A DNA stretch of 64,000 bases, taken from the NCBI GenBank assembly GCA_964483475.1, contig CAZAAH010000003.1, positions 142 through 64,141 on the forward strand, given 5' to 3'. Position 1 is the first letter of the stretch. Every line of letters starts with the position of its first letter. Positions 12,788-38,429 of this stretch are shown here, one piece after another. This stretch comes from an uncultured Candidatus Saccharibacteria bacterium. GTDB taxonomy: Bacteria > Patescibacteriota > Minisyncoccia > Minisyncoccales > Staskawiczbacteraceae. The notes beneath the pieces are model-generated. The model was not told where the DNA came from. It did not search any database and worked only from the letters and a program-made list of their open reading frames with translations. The position numbers and the translations under genes were made by a program.

Positions 12788-14524
12788 TTAGGTTTCAAGT
12801 TTGGCTTTTATTCGACGAACTCCAGAGCCAACAGCTTCTTCTTTGATAATTTTAAACTTTCCTAGCTCGGACGTGTTTTTAACGTGGGGGCCTCCGCAAA
12901 ATTCCTTGCTGAAAATATTGCCCTTTTTATCTTCAATAAAGTAAACAGATACTACATCTCCGTATTTTACACCAAACTCCATTTCTGCGCCAATTTTTTG
13001 AGCTTCTTCTTTTGGCATTTCCTTTTTAACCACGTTCAATCCTTCTTTTATTTTTTGGTTGACCATGGTCTCAATCTTGCTTTTTTCCTCATCGGTAATT
13101 TTCCGGTCAAAAGAAAAATCAATCCTCAATCTTTCTGAATTAATATTACTCCCCCTTTGTTTTATTTGCTTGCCAAACAGTTGCTGCAAAGCCGCCAAGA
13201 GCAAATGATGGGCCGTGTGTAGCTTTATGGTTTCTGGCTTATCATCGGCCAAACCCCCCTTGAACATCCCAGCAGATGCCGATCTACTCAAATCTTTATG
13301 TTCTTTCATCTTCCTCTCAAAATCCTGCATATCTCTTTTTCGATTATTTTCTTTATCTAATTCAAGTGTTAGTTCAATAGGAAAACCATATGTAGTAAAA
13401 AGAATGAATGGATCTTCATTTTCTTCATATTTCTTTTTGCCAGCTTGTAATGTTTTTCCAAAGAACATCACTTCTTTTTCAATAGTCTGTTTTATTTGAT
13501 CTTTTTTATTACCAAAATCATAGACCCCCCTATACTTTTCCATTACCATTTCGGCTAAGTCCGACAGAGTAATATCTTTTAATCCAATAGAATTTGAATA
13601 ATAGATAGCCCTTCGTAAAATGCGTCGTAACACATAACCACGATCAGTATTTGATGGCTCTATACCATCCGTAATTAAAAACACTGAAGCACGAATATGA
13701 TCAGTAATAATTCTTTTCCCTTTGACGTCATCTGAATTGCTATTCCTGCTAATTTCTAACAAAAGAGGTTCTAATACATCAGTTTTATATACGTTTTCAT
13801 ATCCATTTAAGACAGCAAGGGTTCTTTCAAATCCCATACCCGTATCTACATTTTTTTGTTCAGCTAAAATATATTTACCATTACTATCCTTAACATACTC
13901 CATGAAAACATTATTCCAAATTTCAACCCAATTTTTATTCGTAGGTTCAAATTTTTCTGGAGCAGGAATGGTATTGGATTTCCAGTAGAAAATTTCTGTA
14001 TCGGGACCGCACGGGCCAATCTTTCCTACCGGACCCCACCAGTTATCTTCTTTTGGCAAAAAGGCGATTCTTTCTTTTGTAACCCCGTGAGATTTCCATA
14101 TTTCCGCCGATTCTTCATCTTTTGGCGCGTCTTTATCTCCTATAAAACAAGATACTGCTAATCTTTCTATGGGAATCTGCAATTCTTTCGTTAGAAATTC
14201 AAAACTCCACTGGATTGATTCCTTTTTCCAGTAATCGCCCAGCGACCAATTTCCCAACATTTCAAAAAAAGTTAAATGTGTATCATCTCCTACCTCATCA
14301 ATATCAACAGTCCGAAAACATTTTTGAGCATTAACTAATCTTTTACCTTCTGGATGAGATTGACCCAATAAAAAAGGTATTAAGGGTTGCATACCCGCAG
14401 TAATAAATAATGTTTTTTGTTGTGCACCCGTTTCTGCTGGAACTAAAGAAGCGCTAGGAATGATTTTATGCCCGTTTTTCTCAAAAAAATCCAAGAATTT
14501 TTTCCTTAATTCAGATGAATTCAT
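12788..14524 (-). CDS. alaS: alanine--tRNA ligase (short form, 578 aa)
   Basis: AlaRS N-terminal catalytic core (FLDFFEKNGH, TAGMQP...) plus the editing HxxxH (HTAHHLL). Confidence 0.85.
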   Translation of the reverse strand: MNSSELRKKFLDFFEKNGHKIIPSASLVPAETGAQQKTLFITAGMQPLIPFLLGQSHPEGKRLVNAQKCFRTVDIDEVGDDTHLTFFEMLGNWSLGDYWKKESIQWSFEFLTKELQIPIERLAVSCFIGDKDAPKDEESAEIWKSHGVTKERIAFLPKEDNWWGPVGKIGPCGPDTEIFYWKSNTIPAPEKFEPTNKNWVEIWNNVFMEYVKDSNGKYILAEQKNVDTGMGFERTLAVLNGYENVYKTDVLEPLLLEISRNSNSDDVKGKRIITDHIRASVFLITDGIEPSNTDRGYVLRRILRRAIYYSNSIGLKDITLSDLAEMVMEKYRGVYDFGNKKDQIKQTIEKEVMFFGKTLQAGKKKYEENEDPFILFTTYGFPIELTLELDKENNRKRDMQDFERKMKEHKDLSRSASAGMFKGGLADDKPETIKLHTAHHLLLAALQQLFGKQIKQRGSNINSERLRIDFSFDRKITDEEKSKIETMVNQKIKEGLNVVKKEMPKEEAQKIGAEMEFGVKYGDVVSVYFIEDKKGNIFSKEFCGGPHVKNTSELGKFKIIKEEAVGSGVRRIKAKLET

Positions 14525-14861: not shown

Positions 14862-15410
14862 TTAGGTATACCGATCAGCCACCACTGAAGCCGCAAAGGA
14901 CATGGGCTTTATCCTCGGCTCAAAACCATTGGCTCTGATCAACCCCGTCACCTCTTTTATCATTTCCTTGGTTTTGCCCTGCTCCCCGACGTCAGCATGA
15001 ATATACTGAAACTGGTAATTAAAATCCGGCCTTGAGCCCCCAAAATCTTTTTCCAACGTTTCCCTCAAGGACAGTGCCAATTCGCACGACAAATACACTT
15101 CTTGCAAAATTCTCTGCTTCCAATTAATGTGCATAAATTTTTTCAAGTAAGCATCGGGATAGTGCATTTTTTTCAAAAAAAACCGGCCGCCGGCGCCCGA
15201 TCTCAAAACAACAATGGCAATTGGGAAAAAGGGCTTATCTGACGAAGGCGAGTCGCATCCCACCACAATATCATAAAAAAAGGCAGGGGCGGAAGCAATG
15301 TAACGGTAAATTTCTTGGATAACTTCCTTAAACTCCAGCTCTCCGCGGCTTGGATTAAAAAATGATCCGTTTTGTATTTCGTGATTCATATTGCCTGATA
15401 ATACTACCAA
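14862..15410 (-). CDS. hypothetical protein, possibly DUF458/YkuK-like RNase H-fold
   Basis: DIVVGCDSP...PIAIVVL resembles the YkuK core. Weak. Confidence 0.35.
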   Translation of the reverse strand: MVVLSGNMNHEIQNGSFFNPSRGELEFKEVIQEIYRYIASAPAFFYDIVVGCDSPSSDKPFFPIAIVVLRSGAGGRFFLKKMHYPDAYLKKFMHINWKQRILQEVYLSCELALSLRETLEKDFGGSRPDFNYQFQYIHADVGEQGKTKEMIKEVTGLIRANGFEPRIKPMSFAASVVADRYT

Positions 15411-15491
15411 AAAATCTGCTTGTCAAAGTATAATAAAAAAAGCACGGTCGATTATTCAACAGTGCTTCAACAGCTAAACTCACTAAAAGAA

Positions 15492-16213
15492 CTATCTTTG
15501 GCCGGTCAGTTCGGCCCAGTGGTGCTTTGGCTTGAGCCGCTGCGACCCAGCCTTGCAAAGCGGACAATCCTCTGGCTTCCACTTTTGAATATCGCAGTGG
15601 ACCAGGTACACAATCTTCTGGCCTTCAATTTCGTAAACGTCAGAACGGTGGACCAAAACTACTGGCGTCGCAAAGTTAATTGGATAATCAGGATGGGCAT
15701 CCCGAATCCCCTTGCGCACCGCTAAGAGTGTTGACGCGGTTGTCATCAGCTCTTCTGCCTGCAAGACAACTTCGTCTGGCCCAATGGTGAATCTTTTCCA
15801 CAGCTGAGACTTTCGGGGCCCTTTTCCGTGAAGTCATGCTGAGCACCCATGGCAATGGCAACGCTGTGGGAAAAATCGGCTCCGGCGTGATCTGAACCAA
15901 CCACCCAGTCAACTCTTTTGTTTTGTTCACGCCACTCACAAAGCTCTTCGTATTTATAAGAGGCCAACTCTCCAAAAATCTGGCAGAGGTTTGAGTACCG
16001 CAAAGCCCTCAACGTATCGACAAACCCGTTGCTGCAGTCTCCAGCCGTGAGCTCGGCATGGGGATCTTTGGGATCGCCAGAGTGCAGCCACAGGGCGTCG
16101 CATAGTTTAAGGACGTGGGTTATCTCTTTCTCGCCAAATTTAATGAAAGCGGTGTCCCGGGCTTTTAACCTTCTCAACTCATCCACGCTTTTCATTTCCA
16201 GAATTTTGGTCAT
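15492..16213 (-). pseudogene. pyrE: orotate phosphoribosyltransferase (pyrE), interrupted by a frameshift near 15760-15800
   Basis: The 155-aa ORF (GIP-like GSDHAGADFSHSVAIAMG) and the overlapping 90-aa ORF carry the PRTase motif in a different frame (DEVVLQAEELMTTASTLLA, type-I PRPP loop). GC-rich. Confidence 0.5.
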
Positions 16214-16214
16214 G

Positions 16215-16916
16215 TCAGGCTCCCTTCCGGTATTGGTTCATGAGGTTGTGAAGTTGCAACGCTTTCTCCCGCGGGTCATCAGCAAAGATGACGTCCCGGG
16301 AAGAGTTGATGATCAACCCCTTGCCTCGGCTGTCCATTCCAGCTTTCATCGTAGCCTCAAGGTCTCCGCCTTGGGCTCCGATGCCCGGCGCCAAAATCGG
16401 CAAATTGCCAATGATTTGGCGGATCCTGCTCAATTCAGTTGGATGGGTTGCCCCAGCCACAACCGCGCAGTTTCCGTATCGGTTCCATTCCTTGGCGACC
16501 CTTGTGGCAACATATTGGTAGAGACTCAACGAAATGCTTTCGTCAATGACAATGTCCTGAAGCTCGCCGGCTCCCGGGTTGGAGGTTCTAACAAGCACAA
16601 AAATTCCCTTGTCCTTGCGTTCAAGGAACGGCTTGAGCGCCTCGCCACCCAGATAAGGACTTACTGTGATGGCGTCGGCCTTCAGCCAATCAAAGGCCAT
16701 TTCGGCCGTGCCATTGTTGGTGTTCCCGATGTCTCCGGCTTTCCTATCAAGAATCACCGGAACATCTGGCGCAGCTTCGTGAATGTAACGCATAGTGTGT
16801 CGGAGGGCCGCTAATCCTTCGTCTCCATACTCCTCGTAGAAGGCAAAGTTTGGCTTGTAGGCGCAAACTAAATCCTTGGTTGCCTCAACAATCGTACAAT
16901 TAAAATTGTACATCAT
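16215..16916 (-). CDS. pyrF: orotidine-5'-phosphate decarboxylase (type 2), apparently N-terminally short
   Basis: ILDRKAGDIGNT (DxKxGDIG), SPYLGGEALKP, FVLVRTSNPG. The upstream in-frame stop leaves no room for the usual N-terminal 25-30 aa. GC-rich. Confidence 0.7.
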   Translation of the reverse strand: MMYNFNCTIVEATKDLVCAYKPNFAFYEEYGDEGLAALRHTMRYIHEAAPDVPVILDRKAGDIGNTNNGTAEMAFDWLKADAITVSPYLGGEALKPFLERKDKGIFVLVRTSNPGAGELQDIVIDESISLSLYQYVATRVAKEWNRYGNCAVVAGATHPTELSRIRQIIGNLPILAPGIGAQGGDLEATMKAGMDSRGKGLIINSSRDVIFADDPREKALQLHNLMNQYRKGA

Positions 16917-17136
16917 GTACTCTGCGGACGTGCCAGTACCGATGAATCTTTTTGGAATTTTTGCTCAATCGCTATCCAGCCCAACACATAAAAACTTTCC
17001 TTCATCCCACTTTTTCCCAATCATTTCCATGAAATTTCGCTCAGCCATTACACACGCTCCCTTCTGGTAAAACTCTGTTCAATTGACAAGGATCTCTCCA
17101 CAACAACGATTACTCAACTTACCAAAAAAACTCTTA

Positions 17137-17186
17137 GAAATCAACTTTCTTATTGTAAAAAGAAATCAACTTTCTTATTGTAAAAA
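17137..17186. repeat. tandem 25-bp direct repeat x2 (AGAAATCAACTTTCTTATTGTAAAA)
   Basis: Read directly, in the pyrF upstream region. Confidence 0.6.
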
Positions 17187-17230
17187 ATAGTTAATCATAC
17201 TCATCCCACTCTATTGCTACCTTATTACAC

Positions 17231-17262
17231 CCACTGGACAATTCGGACGAATTGTCCAGTGG
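17231..17262. promoter_or_regulatory. palindromic operator-like site CCACTGGACAATTCG-GAC-GAATTGTCCAGTGG
   Basis: Perfect 14-bp inverted repeat. Near-identical second copy at 17600-17627, on the other side of the ArsR-family gene. Confidence 0.55.
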
Positions 17263-17276
17263 TTTCGCAAAAAAAT

Positions 17277-17543
17277 TTAGATGAAAATTTTTAGTACTTT
17301 TTTAAAATCTTCCGGAATATCTTTGCTCAAACTATAATGCACAAAACCGTCTTTCCCTTCAGATTCTAAAATATCCAAGTTTTGCATTATAATTAAATGT
17401 CTTGATGTGGCCTTCAAAGAAATCTTCAGTTCTTCTGAAATTTTAGTAACCGTCATACTTTTACCGTTAAATAATATTCTTATTATTTTAATCCGGTTAA
17501 TATTTCCTAAAGTTTTAAAAATAGTAATCCAACGTTTATCCAT
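17277..17543 (-). CDS. ArsR/SmtB-family HTH transcriptional regulator
   Basis: Winged HTH MTVTKISEELKISLKATSRHLIIMQNLDIL. 88 aa. Confidence 0.7.
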   Translation of the reverse strand: MDKRWITIFKTLGNINRIKIIRILFNGKSMTVTKISEELKISLKATSRHLIIMQNLDILESEGKDGFVHYSLSKDIPEDFKKVLKIFI

Positions 17544-17599
17544 AATTTTATAAAATTTTTAAAAATAATTTACTAAACAATCCCCCCCCTCTCCCCACC

Positions 17600-17627
17600 A
17601 CTGGACAATTCGCGCGAATTGTCCGGT
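17600..17627. promoter_or_regulatory. second palindromic operator-like site ACTGGACAATTCGCGCGAATTGTCCGGT, preceded by a poly-C tract
   Basis: Read directly, upstream of the ArsR-family gene. Confidence 0.55.
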
Positions 17628-17684
17628 AGGTTAAAATGAAAACAAGTAAAATATTTTTGTTTTCTATTTTAACTTTTTACAATT

Positions 17685-18461
17685 TTAAATTAACTTTATT
17701 TCTTCGACTATCTTTATGAATTCGTCGGAGTCTAGAGAGGCTCCGCCCACGAGCAACCCATTGATGCTTTCCTCTCGCAAATACGAGCTGGCATTTTTTG
17801 AGTTAACGCTGCCCCCGTAAAGAATTTTTACCTTTTTGGCCGCGTCTTGGTTGTAGAGCTTGGACACTATGCTCCTAATGAGCACCACCGACCTCAAGGC
17901 CTCGTCTACTGAACAGTTTTTGCCATTTCCAATGGCCCAGACAGGCTCGTAAGCGATGATTAAATTTGAAATTTTTGAAACTCCCTTTAATCCTTCTTCA
18001 ATTTGCTTTGTTAAAATTAAATTTTTATCTTCTCCTTCCTTTTCACCAACACAAAAAATCGGCTTGAAGCCTGCATCCAAAGTAGCTTTGACTTTTTTGT
18101 TTATCATGTCATCGGTCTCGCCAAGCTCGCGCCGTTCAGAATGGCCAACTATTGCATATTTTACATTGAGGTCTTTTAGCATGAGCGGTGAAATTTCCCC
18201 GGTATAAGCTCCTTTCTCTTTATAAAAAACATTTTGTCCTCCTACGCCAAGGCTTCGGACGGACAGGCGCGCCAAGATTGGAATATATACGAATGGAGGG
18301 CAAATTATAACTTCTGCATTTTTTATTTTTGAAACCGATTTTTTAACAGATTCAAAAAGCCTCTTTGCCCCTTCTTGTGTATTTGGATTAAGTTTCCAAT
18401 TAGCTACTATTAATTTTTTCACCCCCACACCAAACGAGTTTATTATTTCAAGATTTTTCAA
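17685..18461 (-). CDS. tpiA: triosephosphate isomerase
   Basis: ANWKLN, GHSERR, GGASL motifs. Confidence 0.9.
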   Translation of the reverse strand: MKNLEIINSFGVGVKKLIVANWKLNPNTQEGAKRLFESVKKSVSKIKNAEVIICPPFVYIPILARLSVRSLGVGGQNVFYKEKGAYTGEISPLMLKDLNVKYAIVGHSERRELGETDDMINKKVKATLDAGFKPIFCVGEKEGEDKNLILTKQIEEGLKGVSKISNLIIAYEPVWAIGNGKNCSVDEALRSVVLIRSIVSKLYNQDAAKKVKILYGGSVNSKNASSYLREESINGLLVGGASLDSDEFIKIVEEIKLI

Positions 18462-18559
18462 TCTTGAATATATTTGGCTCGTTCGTGTTTATGTTATTAC
18501 ATTCTTTCATTACCCTCACACGCCCTATGGGAAAAATTCAAAACTCGTTATGGTGTGGG
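18424..18559. repeat. 21-bp inverted repeat (CCCCCACACCAAACGAGTTT / AAACTCGTTATGGTGTGGGGG) bracketing the tpiA start and 5' region
   Basis: Read directly. 19 of 21 bases complementary. Confidence 0.45.
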
Positions 18560-18654
18560 GGTTCATATTCAATCATTTTACCAAAAATTTGTACAAAAAA
18601 AAGTCCCGAAGCATCTAGTGCTTGGGAACCGAGTTTCGTGACCTATCGATTCTG

Positions 18655-19026
18655 TTAAGAACCGATTTTCCCGATTACGGGTTGTTGAATCTTCTGCTCG
18701 CCTTTTGACTTTAATATGTTGAAATAAACTCTCCATCTTTCTGCGCGGAAAACCATAAAAATATTCCCTGCTTGAATGTCGTGAGGCGAACACGCTGCGT
18801 AGCCCAATTGATTAGGAAGAAGTATTAATATCGGTCGTCCAAAGTGGTATGCCTGGACCATTGCATATCTTTGGTGACCCAAAGAAGTAACACTAAGAAC
18901 ATAATAATCTTCTTTTTTACGAAGTCTCTTCCAAGAAATTGGCCGGCCATTGTTGATCAGACGATCGGTAACTACAACGAGTACCATAAAGCAAAAGGCT
19001 ACTATCAACCAAATGTACCATTCCAT
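18655..19026 (-). CDS. SanA/YdcF (DUF218) family remnant: N-terminal TM plus C-terminal segment, central domain missing
   Basis: DRLINNGRPISW resembles SanA DRWISW. The C-terminus YVLSVTSLGHQRYAMVQAYHFG...NIFMVFRAERWRVYFNILKSKGE aligns with the SanA C-terminus. GC-rich. Confidence 0.4.
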   Translation of the reverse strand: MEWYIWLIVAFCFMVLVVVTDRLINNGRPISWKRLRKKEDYYVLSVTSLGHQRYAMVQAYHFGRPILILLPNQLGYAACSPHDIQAGNIFMVFRAERWRVYFNILKSKGEQKIQQPVIGKIGS

Positions 19027-38355: not shown

Positions 38356-38429
38356 CGGGCTGGAGTATGCCGGTAGTACGCGCCCATGGGGTGGGTGTAG
38401 ACTGGGTTCGATTCCCAGCAGCCCGACCA
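38356..38429 (+). tRNA. tRNA-Pro (anticodon GGG) with encoded CCA
   Basis: Manual fold: acceptor CGGGCTG/CAGCCCG, D-stem GTAT/GTAC, anticodon stem CGCCC/GGGTG with loop ATGGGGT, T-arm CTGGG-TTCGATT-CCCAG, ending ACCA. 74 nt. Confidence 0.7.

Follow-up and report, generated by a model that had tools for sequence, protein, structure and literature searches.

Operators of the 12-2-12 type are typical of the ArsR/SmtB family of winged-helix regulators. Its autorepressors, among them CzrA, SmtB, HlyU, NolR, PagR and SdpR, share an alpha1-alpha2-alpha3-alphaR-beta hairpin-alpha5 fold and carry an inverted repeat of this kind near their own promoter. Short palindromes are also familiar from other settings, as RAYT genes are typically flanked by REPINs (PMC3337134) and the palindromic elements of Rickettsia insert in frame (PMC10969869). 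The locus described here lies in a 64-kb stretch of DNA (the window) and comprises the following features, together with their surroundings.

17685..18461, minus strand: tpiA, lying upstream of the cassette in a synteny common to the related loci L002, L003 and L004
17597..17631 (core 17600-17627), no strand: upstream palindrome relative to the minus-strand regulator gene, centred 70 nt ahead of its ATG; proposed autoregulatory operator
17544..17599, minus strand: leader/promoter region from the upstream palindrome to the ATG, with a G-rich run and an AT-rich stretch
17277..17543, minus strand: ArsR/SmtB-fold winged-helix gene, 88 aa (Pfam HTH_5/ArsR, E = 8.9e-9)
17229..17263 (core 17231-17262), no strand: downstream palindrome, perfect 15-2-15, centred 30 nt past the stop codon; proposed second conserved cassette boundary and putative binding site
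17136..17185 (equivalent register 17137-17186), no strand: 2 x 25-bp tandem repeat with 100% identical units
17120..17135, minus strand: direct repeat copy A, 16/17 nt (AAGAGTTTTTTTGGTA), on the edge of the pyrFE island nearer the ArsR-like gene
15492..17048, minus strand: pyrF/pyrE-like island, GC ~50-54% vs ~33-40% around it; context, outside the cassette
16215-17048, minus strand: pyrF, with an in-frame TGA at 16965-16967
15492-16213, minus strand: pyrE-like gene, split by a frameshift near 15750-15830
15398..15426, minus strand: native promoter of an RNaseH-like (PF04308) gene, with TTGACA (15426-15421), 17 nt, TATTAT (15403-15398) and ATG at 15389

Like the ArsR/SmtB autorepressors, the regulator encoded at this locus has the family fold (TM ~0.8) and a 12-2-12-type inverted repeat near its own promoter, which overlaps the -35 element in relatives. 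It differs from them in lacking alpha3N/alpha5 sensing residues and cysteines, in scoring below the NCBI family cut-off and in keeping a second cognate site past the stop codon; the cassette palindromes are also perfect and longer than needed, and solo copies are dispersed, including inside open reading frames. With REP/REPIN-RAYT systems the locus shares a dispersed short palindrome, an associated single-copy gene flanked by copies, and a repeat class and protein that appear to co-evolve (PMC3337134). In contrast to those systems, the partner here is a winged-helix binder and not an HUH/Y1 (IS200-like) transposase, the copy number is far lower, the perfect palindromes lack a GTAG/CGTC tag, and copies occur inside coding sequences as well. 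As with Rickettsia palindromic elements and intragenic MITEs, palindromic DNA sits in frame in unrelated housekeeping genes, here in related genomes only, and adds a conserved peptide; those elements measure ~100-150 bp as opposed to 28-46 bp here, where no TIR/TSD signature was seen, the palindrome has one particular regulator-like gene as its companion and the window contains no in-frame copy. Finally, as with integron attC sites and with Xer-exploiting elements that have dif-like sites on their flanks, a palindromic site brackets genes (the ArsR-like gene always, other accessory genes sometimes) and a duplication at one related locus includes the site, a comparison that is suggestive only; unlike these elements, no integrase lies nearby, the sites are far shorter than attC and perfectly symmetric, and there are many per genome rather than a single dif.

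The downstream palindrome reads CCACTGGACAATTCG-GA-CGAATTGTCCAGTGG across 17231-17262, with arms that were 100% complementary both in the sequence and by repeat finder. The upstream palindrome (17600-17627) reads ACTGGACAATTCGC/GCGAATTGTCCGGT, also written ACTGGACAATTCG-CG-CGAATTGTCCGGT, and has 14-nt arms with one mismatch that are perfect over 10-12 nt. An earlier note on this DNA had described twin, near-identical perfect palindromes on either side of an 88-aa ArsR/SmtB-type gene, the 17600 copy upstream of it and the 17231 copy downstream toward pyrF. The flanking arrangement and the strand logic hold, as does the near-identity (89% across 35 nt, 17229-17263 vs 17597-17631), while perfection applies to the 17231 copy and not to the mismatched 17600 copy; the spacer of the 17231 copy, given there as 3 nt (GAC), is 2 nt. 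A search of the 64-kb window restricted the half-site ACTGGACAATTCG to these four arms, and a relaxed search of the same window for TTCGNNCGAA-centred palindromes returned no further copy with arms >5 nt.

Outside the window, almost all of the homologues inspected across Patescibacteria, at identities of 38 to 100%, had the palindrome-gene-palindrome layout. Both palindromes were present in 4/4 homologues retrieved by protein alone and in 23/25 genome loci with sufficient flank. A protein-led metagenome sample comprised 70 distinct genes and 80 loci in all; strict scoring of the 70 genes gave an upstream palindrome in 40/65, a downstream one in 38/64 and at least one in 46/59, and lenient scoring of all 80 loci gave 51/75 and 65/74. 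The background density of palindromes was 0.036 sites per kb, and occurrence beside the gene was ~100-fold over background. Neighbours of the cassette in relatives included tpiA, rpsB, tsf, membrane proteins and a helicase; these are housekeeping genes, and neither conserved mobile-element genes nor a recurrent transposase was found near the cassettes. A phage origin was considered and rejected, as a scan of viral contigs gave two short-arm matches without an ArsR-like gene, attributable to chance. No published description of the palindrome or the cassette was found in the literature. Compared across these loci, the window is seen to contain one copy of a conserved, Patescibacteria-wide cassette of palindrome, small ArsR/SmtB-fold gene and palindrome.

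The sequence of the palindrome followed that of the protein. Inner TTCG-CG-CGAA was retained in homologues of 38-45% identity, the outer arms varied in step on the two sides of any one gene (those of L002 read TTCCTCCCCACTGG...CCAGTGGGGAGGAA), and a further locus, L108, had the same altered core, CCATTCG..CGAATGG, at both its sites. The outer half-site co-varied with the regulator's recognition helix and wing: GTAC arms accompanied Gly45, TAAG/TTAG arms accompanied an EQRSL wing, and Ser45 occurred exclusively with G at half-site position 8 (22:0, vs 14:22 for Ala/Gly45; Fisher 7.5e-7, uncorrected for phylogeny and confounded by shared ancestry). Residue 45 may set a half-site preference, with Ala favouring ACAATTCG and Ser favouring CCAATTCG. 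The palindromes are very probably the regulator's own binding sites, and the twofold symmetry of the palindrome is consistent with a dimeric protein. The proposal that an ArsR-like regulator binds both palindromes is supported by a layout kept down to 38% identity and by half-sites that co-vary with the protein.

The regulator itself belongs to a divergent ArsR/SmtB subfamily, whose profile was matched by 123 clusters at 50% identity (E <= 1e-10). Its score against NCBIfam NF033788 (HTH_metalloreg) was 50.3 bits, below the cut-off of 55, and profile matches in the PDB were to CzrA, SmtB and HlyU. AlphaFold2 modeling of the monomer from a 5-sequence alignment (pLDDT 82.6) produced an H-H-H-H-E-E-H topology, with elements H3-11, H15-24, H32-39, H43-55, E59-64, E67-72 and H78-87, and Foldseek aligned this model with CzrA, HlyU, NolR, PagR and CadC at TM 0.75-0.84. 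Pfam, AlphaFold2 and Foldseek all point to the alpha1-alpha2-alpha3-alphaR-beta1-beta2-alpha5 winged-helix fold that defines ArsR/SmtB proteins. The recognition helix is SLKATSRHL. The protein contains no Cys, its His residues are limited to H49, within the recognition helix, and H69, and the alpha5 segment DIPEDFKKVLKIFI has no His ligands and forms no alpha5 metal site. Searched for an inducer-sensing site (an alpha3N Cys motif, alpha5 Asp/His/Glu or a reactive Cys pair), the sequence had none, and without metal- or redox-sensing residues the regulator is not a classical metal sensor. Assignment as a defence-system or phage protein was also rejected, since the only matches were to Csa3/CasR domains, through HTH similarity of a generic kind, and to a single PHROG 'transcriptional regulator'.

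Evidence for autoregulation came from the relatives. In at least 11 of ~24, about half, the upstream palindrome gives the -35 hexamer of a strong TATAAT promoter, with TTGNNN 16-18 nt from TATAAT and often an extended TGn, against a background of 1.7% for such a -10. A -35 supplied by the palindrome fits autorepression. In the window, an AT-rich stretch with TATAAA lies directly ahead of the regulator ATG, and a promoter scan between the upstream palindrome and the ATG found none. The leader also contains a G-rich run (C-rich on the plus strand, 17580-17599) that looks like the remnant of a longer outer arm (CTCCCCAC...). This spacer would have shifted the upstream copy to -70 from the ATG, which makes promoter overlap less clear here than in relatives. 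Overlap of the upstream palindrome with the regulator's promoter, as claimed earlier, is seen in about half of the relatives and is not evident in the window.

Taken together, the conserved layout, the ~100-fold enrichment, the co-variation and the -35 overlap in relatives speak for cognate binding and for probable autorepression. We propose, with moderate confidence in the explanation as a whole, that the locus is a conserved cassette in which a dimeric regulator acts on the palindromes, with an upstream operator, a downstream closing site and no specific relation to pyrFE. The regulator would most likely bind the 13-15-2-13-15 palindrome as a dimer, a length that fits the 12-2-12 operators of the family. 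The upstream copy would serve as an autoregulatory operator, its right arm doubling in many relatives as the gene's -35 hexamer. The downstream copy would close the cassette as a further cognate site, probably by forming a protein-bound barrier to read-through or by serving as a second, cooperative operator. A check for DNA looping through the helical phase between the two sites gave R = 0.26 (p ~0.02) at a 10.5-bp period, with a phase that was unstable between 10.3 and 10.7 and loci that are not independent. The arms are often longer than a dimer operator needs, which counts against this explanation and points to hairpin/cruciform biology or to extension by template switching.

Solo copies of the palindrome were found elsewhere in related genomes. 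Strict matches numbered 1-6 per species-representative genome, and solo palindromes of the same class lay on other contigs of the same genomes (five each in CAYJVF01 and CAZAED01, several each in CAZACP01, CAIXXY01 and others); in CAZJVT01, the solo sites differed in class from the resident cassette. Another 8 extra sites occurred in 223 kb near cassettes. Intergenic solo sites lay in convergent gaps in 9 cases and in divergent gaps in 5, often 12-56 nt past a stop codon or between convergent genes. Ten copies sat in frame inside genuine genes, essential ones among them (LepA, LigA, ArgRS, UvrC, TsaD, RsmI-like, MsrA, TrxB-like, ComEC and an MBL-fold protein; lepA, ligA, argS and uvrC being among the host genes), where they coincided with insertions relative to solved (PDB) homologues and added the peptide (L/F)TNSxELVS or QFARI. 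A filled/empty pair of LepA at 90% identity differed by 96 extra nt ending in the palindrome, and one gene family had independent insertion positions; decayed copies were also present. Recurrence at unrelated loci, which the earlier note took as the mark of a generic repeat and as refuting its proposal, thus occurs in related genomes and not in the window, and it makes the element more than a private operator pair, giving the protein-site pair a genome-wide dimension beyond self-regulation. Copies in convergent gaps and inside open reading frames, where an operator role makes little sense, count against the proposed explanation, as do the rarity of solo copies at -35 positions and the difference in class between solo sites and cassette in CAZJVT01. 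The idea that solo palindromes generally provide the -35 of other promoters was discarded, since only ~5% of non-cassette palindrome sides had a good -10, vs 1.7% in the background.

These copies lend weight to an alternative that we regard as rather unlikely overall, namely that the palindrome is a selfish or mobile REP- or MITE-like repeat and the winged-helix gene its dedicated partner in mobilisation, maintenance or silencing. The window would then be a 'master' locus, which is compatible with autoregulation. Besides the solo, in-frame and filled/empty copies, the independent insertion positions and the excess of convergent over divergent sites, this reading draws on the precedents of REPIN-flanked RAYTs (PMC3337134) and in-frame Rickettsia elements (PMC10969869). 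It also draws on the association of the palindrome with accessory DNA: the same palindrome brackets other accessory genes in related genomes, accessory DNA often abuts the cassette (pyrFE in the window, an rve transposase at L003, and at other loci genes for DUF2726 and SDH-protease), and at L010 a 42-nt direct duplication including the palindrome surrounds an inserted small gene. The region bracketed at L010 was checked as a possible decayed ArsR gene and rejected, as it is a distinct 71-aa gene without similarity. Against mobility, domain and structure searches found no nuclease or recombinase motif in the 88-aa regulator, which could not cut and join DNA alone, and the protein had no transposase match. 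No transposase was consistently nearby, target-site duplications and terminal inverted repeats were not seen at the inspected sites (the elements are single palindromes of 28-46 bp), copy number per genome is low, and the window contains only the two cassette copies. A further reading is put forward tentatively: a two-part Patescibacteria system in which a palindrome that proliferates or recombines, entering essential genes in frame, gaps between convergent genes and the borders of accessory cassettes, is paired with a dedicated 88-aa winged-helix protein of co-evolving specificity whose gene it always brackets, resembling REP/RAYT with a non-catalytic binder.

A role as protein-independent hairpins that end tpiA and the regulator gene, either by terminating transcription or by stabilising the mRNA, and that resemble each other through duplication, appears improbable. 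Both window palindromes do sit just past the stop codons of co-directional genes (solo copies, too, often follow a stop codon or lie between convergent genes), and they fold stably on either strand (-26.1 kcal/mol for the downstream and -21.5 kcal/mol for the other copy in sense orientation, z-scores -6.8 and -4.8). Moreover, arms are perfectly complementary well past the conserved core, often to 16-23 nt and in non-conserved sequence. However, in contrast to intrinsic (Rho-independent) terminators, neither window hairpin is followed by a U tract, and a terminator scan of 16800-18700 returned 0 sites, which led us to reject termination as the main role of the palindromes. An Rfam scan of the window matched tRNAs alone. 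A hairpin role also does not account for the fact that homologues of 38-100% identity retain the sequence itself, which follows the protein subfamily, and an exclusive tie to one protein family is unexplained by hairpins alone. In many relatives the upstream copy lies in the -35 region, outside any transcript that starts at the promoter of the gene itself.

The earlier note had further suggested that the regulator couples its own expression to pyrFE genes acquired from elsewhere, and that the tandem repeat belongs to the control region. Its positional observations were correct: the repeat finder recovered the 2 x 25-bp repeat, which occurs nowhere else in the window (matches expected by chance, 0), and the downstream palindrome and the repeat lie between the regulator and pyrF on the same strand, with the palindrome centre ~200 nt and the repeat 88-137 nt ahead of the pyrF ATG. 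Several observations nevertheless make such co-regulation very improbable. Relatives without pyrFE have the downstream palindrome as part of the cassette; in L004, it is followed directly by the promoter of the RNaseH-like gene. Copy A of the direct repeat shares homology with the spacer of the L004 promoter and with copy B (15405-15421), which lies within the spacer of the native RNaseH-like promoter in the window. With its flanking 16/17-nt repeat of the neighbour's promoter spacer, pyrFE is recognisable as a GC-rich island that arrived later and now separates the cassette from the next native gene's promoter, and with both genes disrupted (an in-frame stop in pyrF, a frameshift in the pyrE-like gene), it is to all appearances decaying. 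No good promoter was found for pyrF relative to which the palindrome would occupy a repressing position. Neither similarity to the palindrome nor a copy elsewhere was detected for the tandem repeat; its unit, on the minus strand TTTTACAATAAGAAAGTTGATTTCT, carries a -35-like TTGATT, and the repeat is probably a duplication within a displaced copy of the neighbouring gene's promoter and shows no link to the regulator. From this arrangement, the cassette can be taken to have no specific relation to pyrFE.

Small DNA-binding proteins with few sites per genome, including beside their own gene, are known from RTP/Ter (Bacillus) and ParB/parS. By analogy, the protein-palindrome pair might be a chromosome-level system of replication-fork barriers or organisation sites, and its few sites per genome, a core kept across phylum-level lineages, sites tolerated within genes and a gene adjoining its own sites would agree with this, but a perfect palindrome has none of the polarity of Ter sites, and new copies as coding-region insertions are left unexplained, making this reading a very doubtful one.

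Returning to the conserved cassette with its presumably dimeric regulator, annotation of the window would treat the two palindromes and the regulator as one unit and pyrFE as a decaying insertion, not a regulatory target. Much of bacterial diversity belongs to the Patescibacteria, which have tiny genomes with few known regulators, and almost none have been cultured. The cassette is easily recognised and conserved, and the DNA site of its protein can be read from the genome, so that dozens of natural orthogonal protein-operator pairs offer a model for the evolution of specificity and a possible handle for genetic tools in these bacteria. If the dispersed copies are truly mobile or recombinogenic, they would represent a new kind of repeat-protein partnership, which could help explain the many short protein insertions in these bacteria and the entry of foreign genes such as pyrFE into their reduced genomes. 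Should the two-part system be real, it would imply an as yet undescribed mobilisation route (hairpin/template-switch or host recombinase) or palindromes that act as hot spots for the insertion of foreign DNA such as pyrFE.

Every large ORF of the window lies on the minus strand, including the ribosomal-protein, secY, adk and map cluster, and the window SecY shares 80-88% identity with its counterparts in MAGs of Candidatus Staskawiczbacteria and other Patescibacteria. The local order around the ArsR-like gene, read along the minus strand, is as follows:

17685-18461, minus strand: tpiA, before the upstream palindrome
17600-17627: upstream palindrome, ACTGGACAATTCGC/GCGAATTGTCCGGT, 14-nt arms with one mismatch
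17277-17543, minus strand: ArsR-like gene, 88 aa, Pfam HTH_5/ArsR match
17231-17262: downstream palindrome, CCACTGGACAATTCG-GA-CGAATTGTCCAGTGG, 15-2-15, perfect arms
17136-17185: tandem repeat, 2 x 25 nt, perfect, unique within the window
16215-17048, minus strand: pyrF
15492-16213, minus strand: pyrE-like gene
15426-15421 (TTGACA), 17 nt, 15403-15398 (TATTAT): promoter of the RNaseH-like gene, homologous to that of the related locus L004
14862-15389, minus strand: RNaseH-like PF04308 gene, ATG at 15389

The ArsR-type gene between palindromes and the tandem 25-bp repeat of the earlier note were both confirmed. Its two near-identical perfect palindromes are likewise present and 89% alike across 35 nt, but the 17600-17627 copy carries one mismatch, and the spacer of the 17231-17262 palindrome, read there as GAC, is 2 nt per the sequence. 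Within the 64-kb window the 13-nt half-site is confined to these four arms, and a relaxed search for TTCG-NN-CGAA-centred palindromes gave no further copy with arms longer than 5 nt. In a second sample, a contig (L001, Logan assembly SRR8931233) is 100% identical to window 17239-18340 and terminates within the downstream palindrome, as expected if a hairpin, or variation past it, breaks assemblies. Elsewhere in the window, an alanyl-tRNA synthetase ORF (12788-14524) of 578 aa is much below the usual bacterial enzyme length and may lack its C-terminal part or be split. A tRNA-Pro (GGG) was called by ARAGORN on the plus strand (38356-38429), the remaining window genes all being on the minus strand; Rfam reported no tRNA there at the gathering threshold.

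The 88-aa product is a bona fide ArsR/SmtB-fold protein. Profile searches of PDB sequences matched it to CzrA, SmtB, HlyU, CadC and PagR, and its AlphaFold2 model (pLDDT 82.6) follows the canonical helix-helix-helix-helix-hairpin-helix order and superposes on CzrA, HlyU, NolR and PagR with a TM of ~0.8; its score against the NCBI ArsR/SmtB model (50.3) is slightly under the threshold of 55. As the protein has zero cysteines and zero alpha5 metal ligands, it does not qualify as a classical sensor of metals or redox state. Its profile is matched at E <= 1e-10 by 123 clusters (50% clustering).

All four homologues picked by protein similarity alone (60-70% identity) have the palindrome-gene-palindrome layout. 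Scanning species-representative genomes for the pattern yielded 108 stretches, ~70 of them from Patescibacteria MAGs, with arms of 11-23 nt and a CG centre in 56/81 sites, while the 40 sites of other taxa had arms of 7-10 nt, random centres and a number close to chance expectation. The match adjoins an ArsR-like gene at 22 Patescibacteria loci, and sites occur on both sides in 23/25 loci with enough flank (scan loci, the window and four protein-led loci). A protein-led scan of metagenome contigs, free of palindrome bias, gave 80 loci with 70 distinct genes. Strict scoring of the distinct genes (perfect arms) placed a TTCG..CGAA-centred palindrome no more than 150 nt from the gene in 40/65 cases on the upstream side and 38/64 on the downstream side, and 46/59 had at least one. 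With lenient scoring of the 80 loci, 51/75 had an upstream site, 65/74 a downstream site and 40/69 both. Sites away from the gene number 0.036 per kb (background), hence an enrichment of ~100-fold beside it. The inner TTCGCGCGAA is kept in homologues of just 38-45% identity, where outer arms differ (e.g., TTACTCTTTCGCGCGAAAGAGTAA, TCTCTAATTCGCGCGAATTAGAGA) and both gene flanks share one variant. The cassette is a conserved and apparently undescribed Patescibacteria feature; literature searches found no description of the palindrome or cassette, and nothing specific matched in viral contig scans and defence libraries. In one related cassette (L003), the downstream palindrome is followed after 30 nt by an opposite-strand transposase gene of the rve family (892-1707).

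The strongest reading of the cassette is that the protein and the palindromes are probably a cognate protein-operator pair with autorepression, and comparison across loci strongly supports this idea of the earlier note. The right arm of the upstream palindrome gives a -35 hexamer (TTGTCC, TTGGTA or TTGTAC) in at least 11 of ~24 loci, 16-18 nt from TATAAT and frequently with a TGn extension; such a -10 occurs at just 1.7% of random positions. Three additional loci have TATAAT 8-12 nt from a palindrome arm. This geometry is the one classically associated with autorepression. In the window, the upstream palindrome is centred at -70 and is separated from the AT-rich stretch that precedes the ATG by a G-rich run (17580-17599, plus-strand coordinates) that resembles the outer arm of longer element versions (cf. 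locus L002); no clear promoter was found between palindrome and ATG. Half-site class follows protein subfamily. Where CGAATTG is kept constant, the next outward base is G, never T, in 22/22 proteins with Ser at helix position 45, compared with 14 G and 22 T for Ala/Gly (Fisher 7.5e-7, uncorrected for phylogeny). GTAC arms accompany Gly45 in most cases, TAAG/TTAG arms accompany a different wing sequence (EQRSL), and one locus (L108) has a changed core, CCATTCG..CGAATGG, identical at both its sites. Such covariation is the prediction for a dimeric reader co-evolving with a symmetric site, from which we infer that the protein recognises the palindrome.

A private operator leaves dispersed, intragenic and bracketing copies unexplained, and these point to a spreading or recombining repeat. 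Recurrence at unrelated loci, raised in the earlier note, is absent from the 64-kb window but is seen in related genomes, where the same palindrome occurs away from ArsR-like genes. Copies within one genome belong to one class and in many cases have the same central dinucleotide; CAYJVF01, for example, has five CACTTACCAATTCG copies, and CAZAED01, CAZACP01 and CAIXXY01 have several each. Of the solo intergenic copies, nine sit in convergent gaps and five in divergent ones. Ten further solo copies lie inside long ORFs, reading in frame as (L/F)TNSxELVS or QFARI, in lepA, ligA, argS, uvrC, tsaD, an rsmI-like methylase, comEC, msrA, a trxB-like reductase and an MBL-fold protein, and alignments to solved homologues place 6-7-residue insertions precisely at the palindrome. 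The insert is absent from most LepA orthologues (603 aa); a small subclade carries it at one common loop, partly decayed (SANSYELAD), and in another orthologue residue 93 is the site of an independent insertion. This last orthologue and an insert-free LepA of 90% protein identity (L196 400-720 vs L197 1648-1880) differ by 96 in-frame nt ending in GCCACTGGACAATTC-ATCC-GAATTGTCCAGTGGC, the palindrome being the last 34 nt alone. The other ~60 nt (..CAGCCTTCGGGAGTCCCTGCGGGTCC..) lie outside it, and the same LepA loops hold unrelated insertions in other orthologues. Perfect arms often run past the 13-15 conserved nt, to as many as 23 nt, taking in unrelated flanking sequence, and in one LepA (L009) the outer arm is formed by the native codons for Pro-Pro-Pro plus the reverse complement of these, which suggests template switching or hairpin-related palindrome extension.

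Palindromes also bracket accessory genes in related loci:

L084 2147-2722: TfoX_N protein, 100 aa (competence regulator-like), between two solo palindromes
L076: SDH-type protease
L093 and L034: proteins of no assigned function
L010 5300-5780 (Saccharibacteria MAG CAYZEI010000001.1): 71-aa Cys/His-containing gene between two palindromes

An ArsR-like gene that is more distant (helix RIKSTSKHL) is also present in L084, 800 bp away. The 71-aa gene has its own promoter, RBS and canonical terminator, its two palindromes have a 42-nt direct repeat in common (palindrome + GTCGCCAAAATACGTAA), and the arrangement looks like DNA integrated, or duplicated, at a palindrome. For the dispersed, intragenic and bracketing copies, a spreading or recombining repeat partnered by the winged-helix protein is a tentative explanation, less probable than the operator reading, and it is compatible with autoregulation. 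The layout is like that of REP/RAYT (PMC3337134) and Rickettsia palindromic elements (PMC10969869), but the partner protein here is non-catalytic. A purely hairpin or terminator role is unlikely, as no U tract follows either window hairpin and the sequence itself is conserved beyond pairing.

The coupling of the regulator to acquired pyrFE genes, as the earlier note proposed, is not supported; nothing connects them. At L004, TTGACA-16-TATATT lies within ~10 nt of the downstream palindrome and is followed by the RNaseH-like gene; the window counterpart of this promoter is 1.8 kb from the downstream palindrome, on the far side of pyrFE. The intervening pyrFE DNA has a GC content of ~50-54% vs 33-40% in its surroundings, and this island is flanked by a 16/17-nt direct repeat, AAG(C)AGnTTTTTTGGTA, at 17120-17135 (copy A) and 15405-15421 (copy B), which matches the spacer of the RNaseH-like promoter, copy B being that spacer. 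We infer that pyrFE was inserted into the neighbour's promoter and that this left a short duplication behind. The role in control of the pyrF region that the earlier note proposed for the tandem repeat is likewise unsupported; its 25-bp unit directly adjoins copy A, whose -35-like TTGATT it carries, and is best read as a local duplication within the displaced promoter copy. Both pyr genes appear disrupted, or alternatively misassembled. pyrF has an in-frame TGA at 16965-16967 (codon 28, ..VGLDSD*AKIPK..); because the remaining window genes read through normally with code 11, this indicates a pseudogene or assembly error, not recoding. The pyrE-like phosphoribosyltransferase gene appears frameshifted, with two overlapping frames of 155 aa and 90 aa (junction near 15750-15830), the second containing ..EELMTTAST..; Pfam gave no match for either piece. 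Beyond the cognate protein-operator reading, it is the dispersed-repeat side of this Patescibacteria cassette that deserves follow-up.
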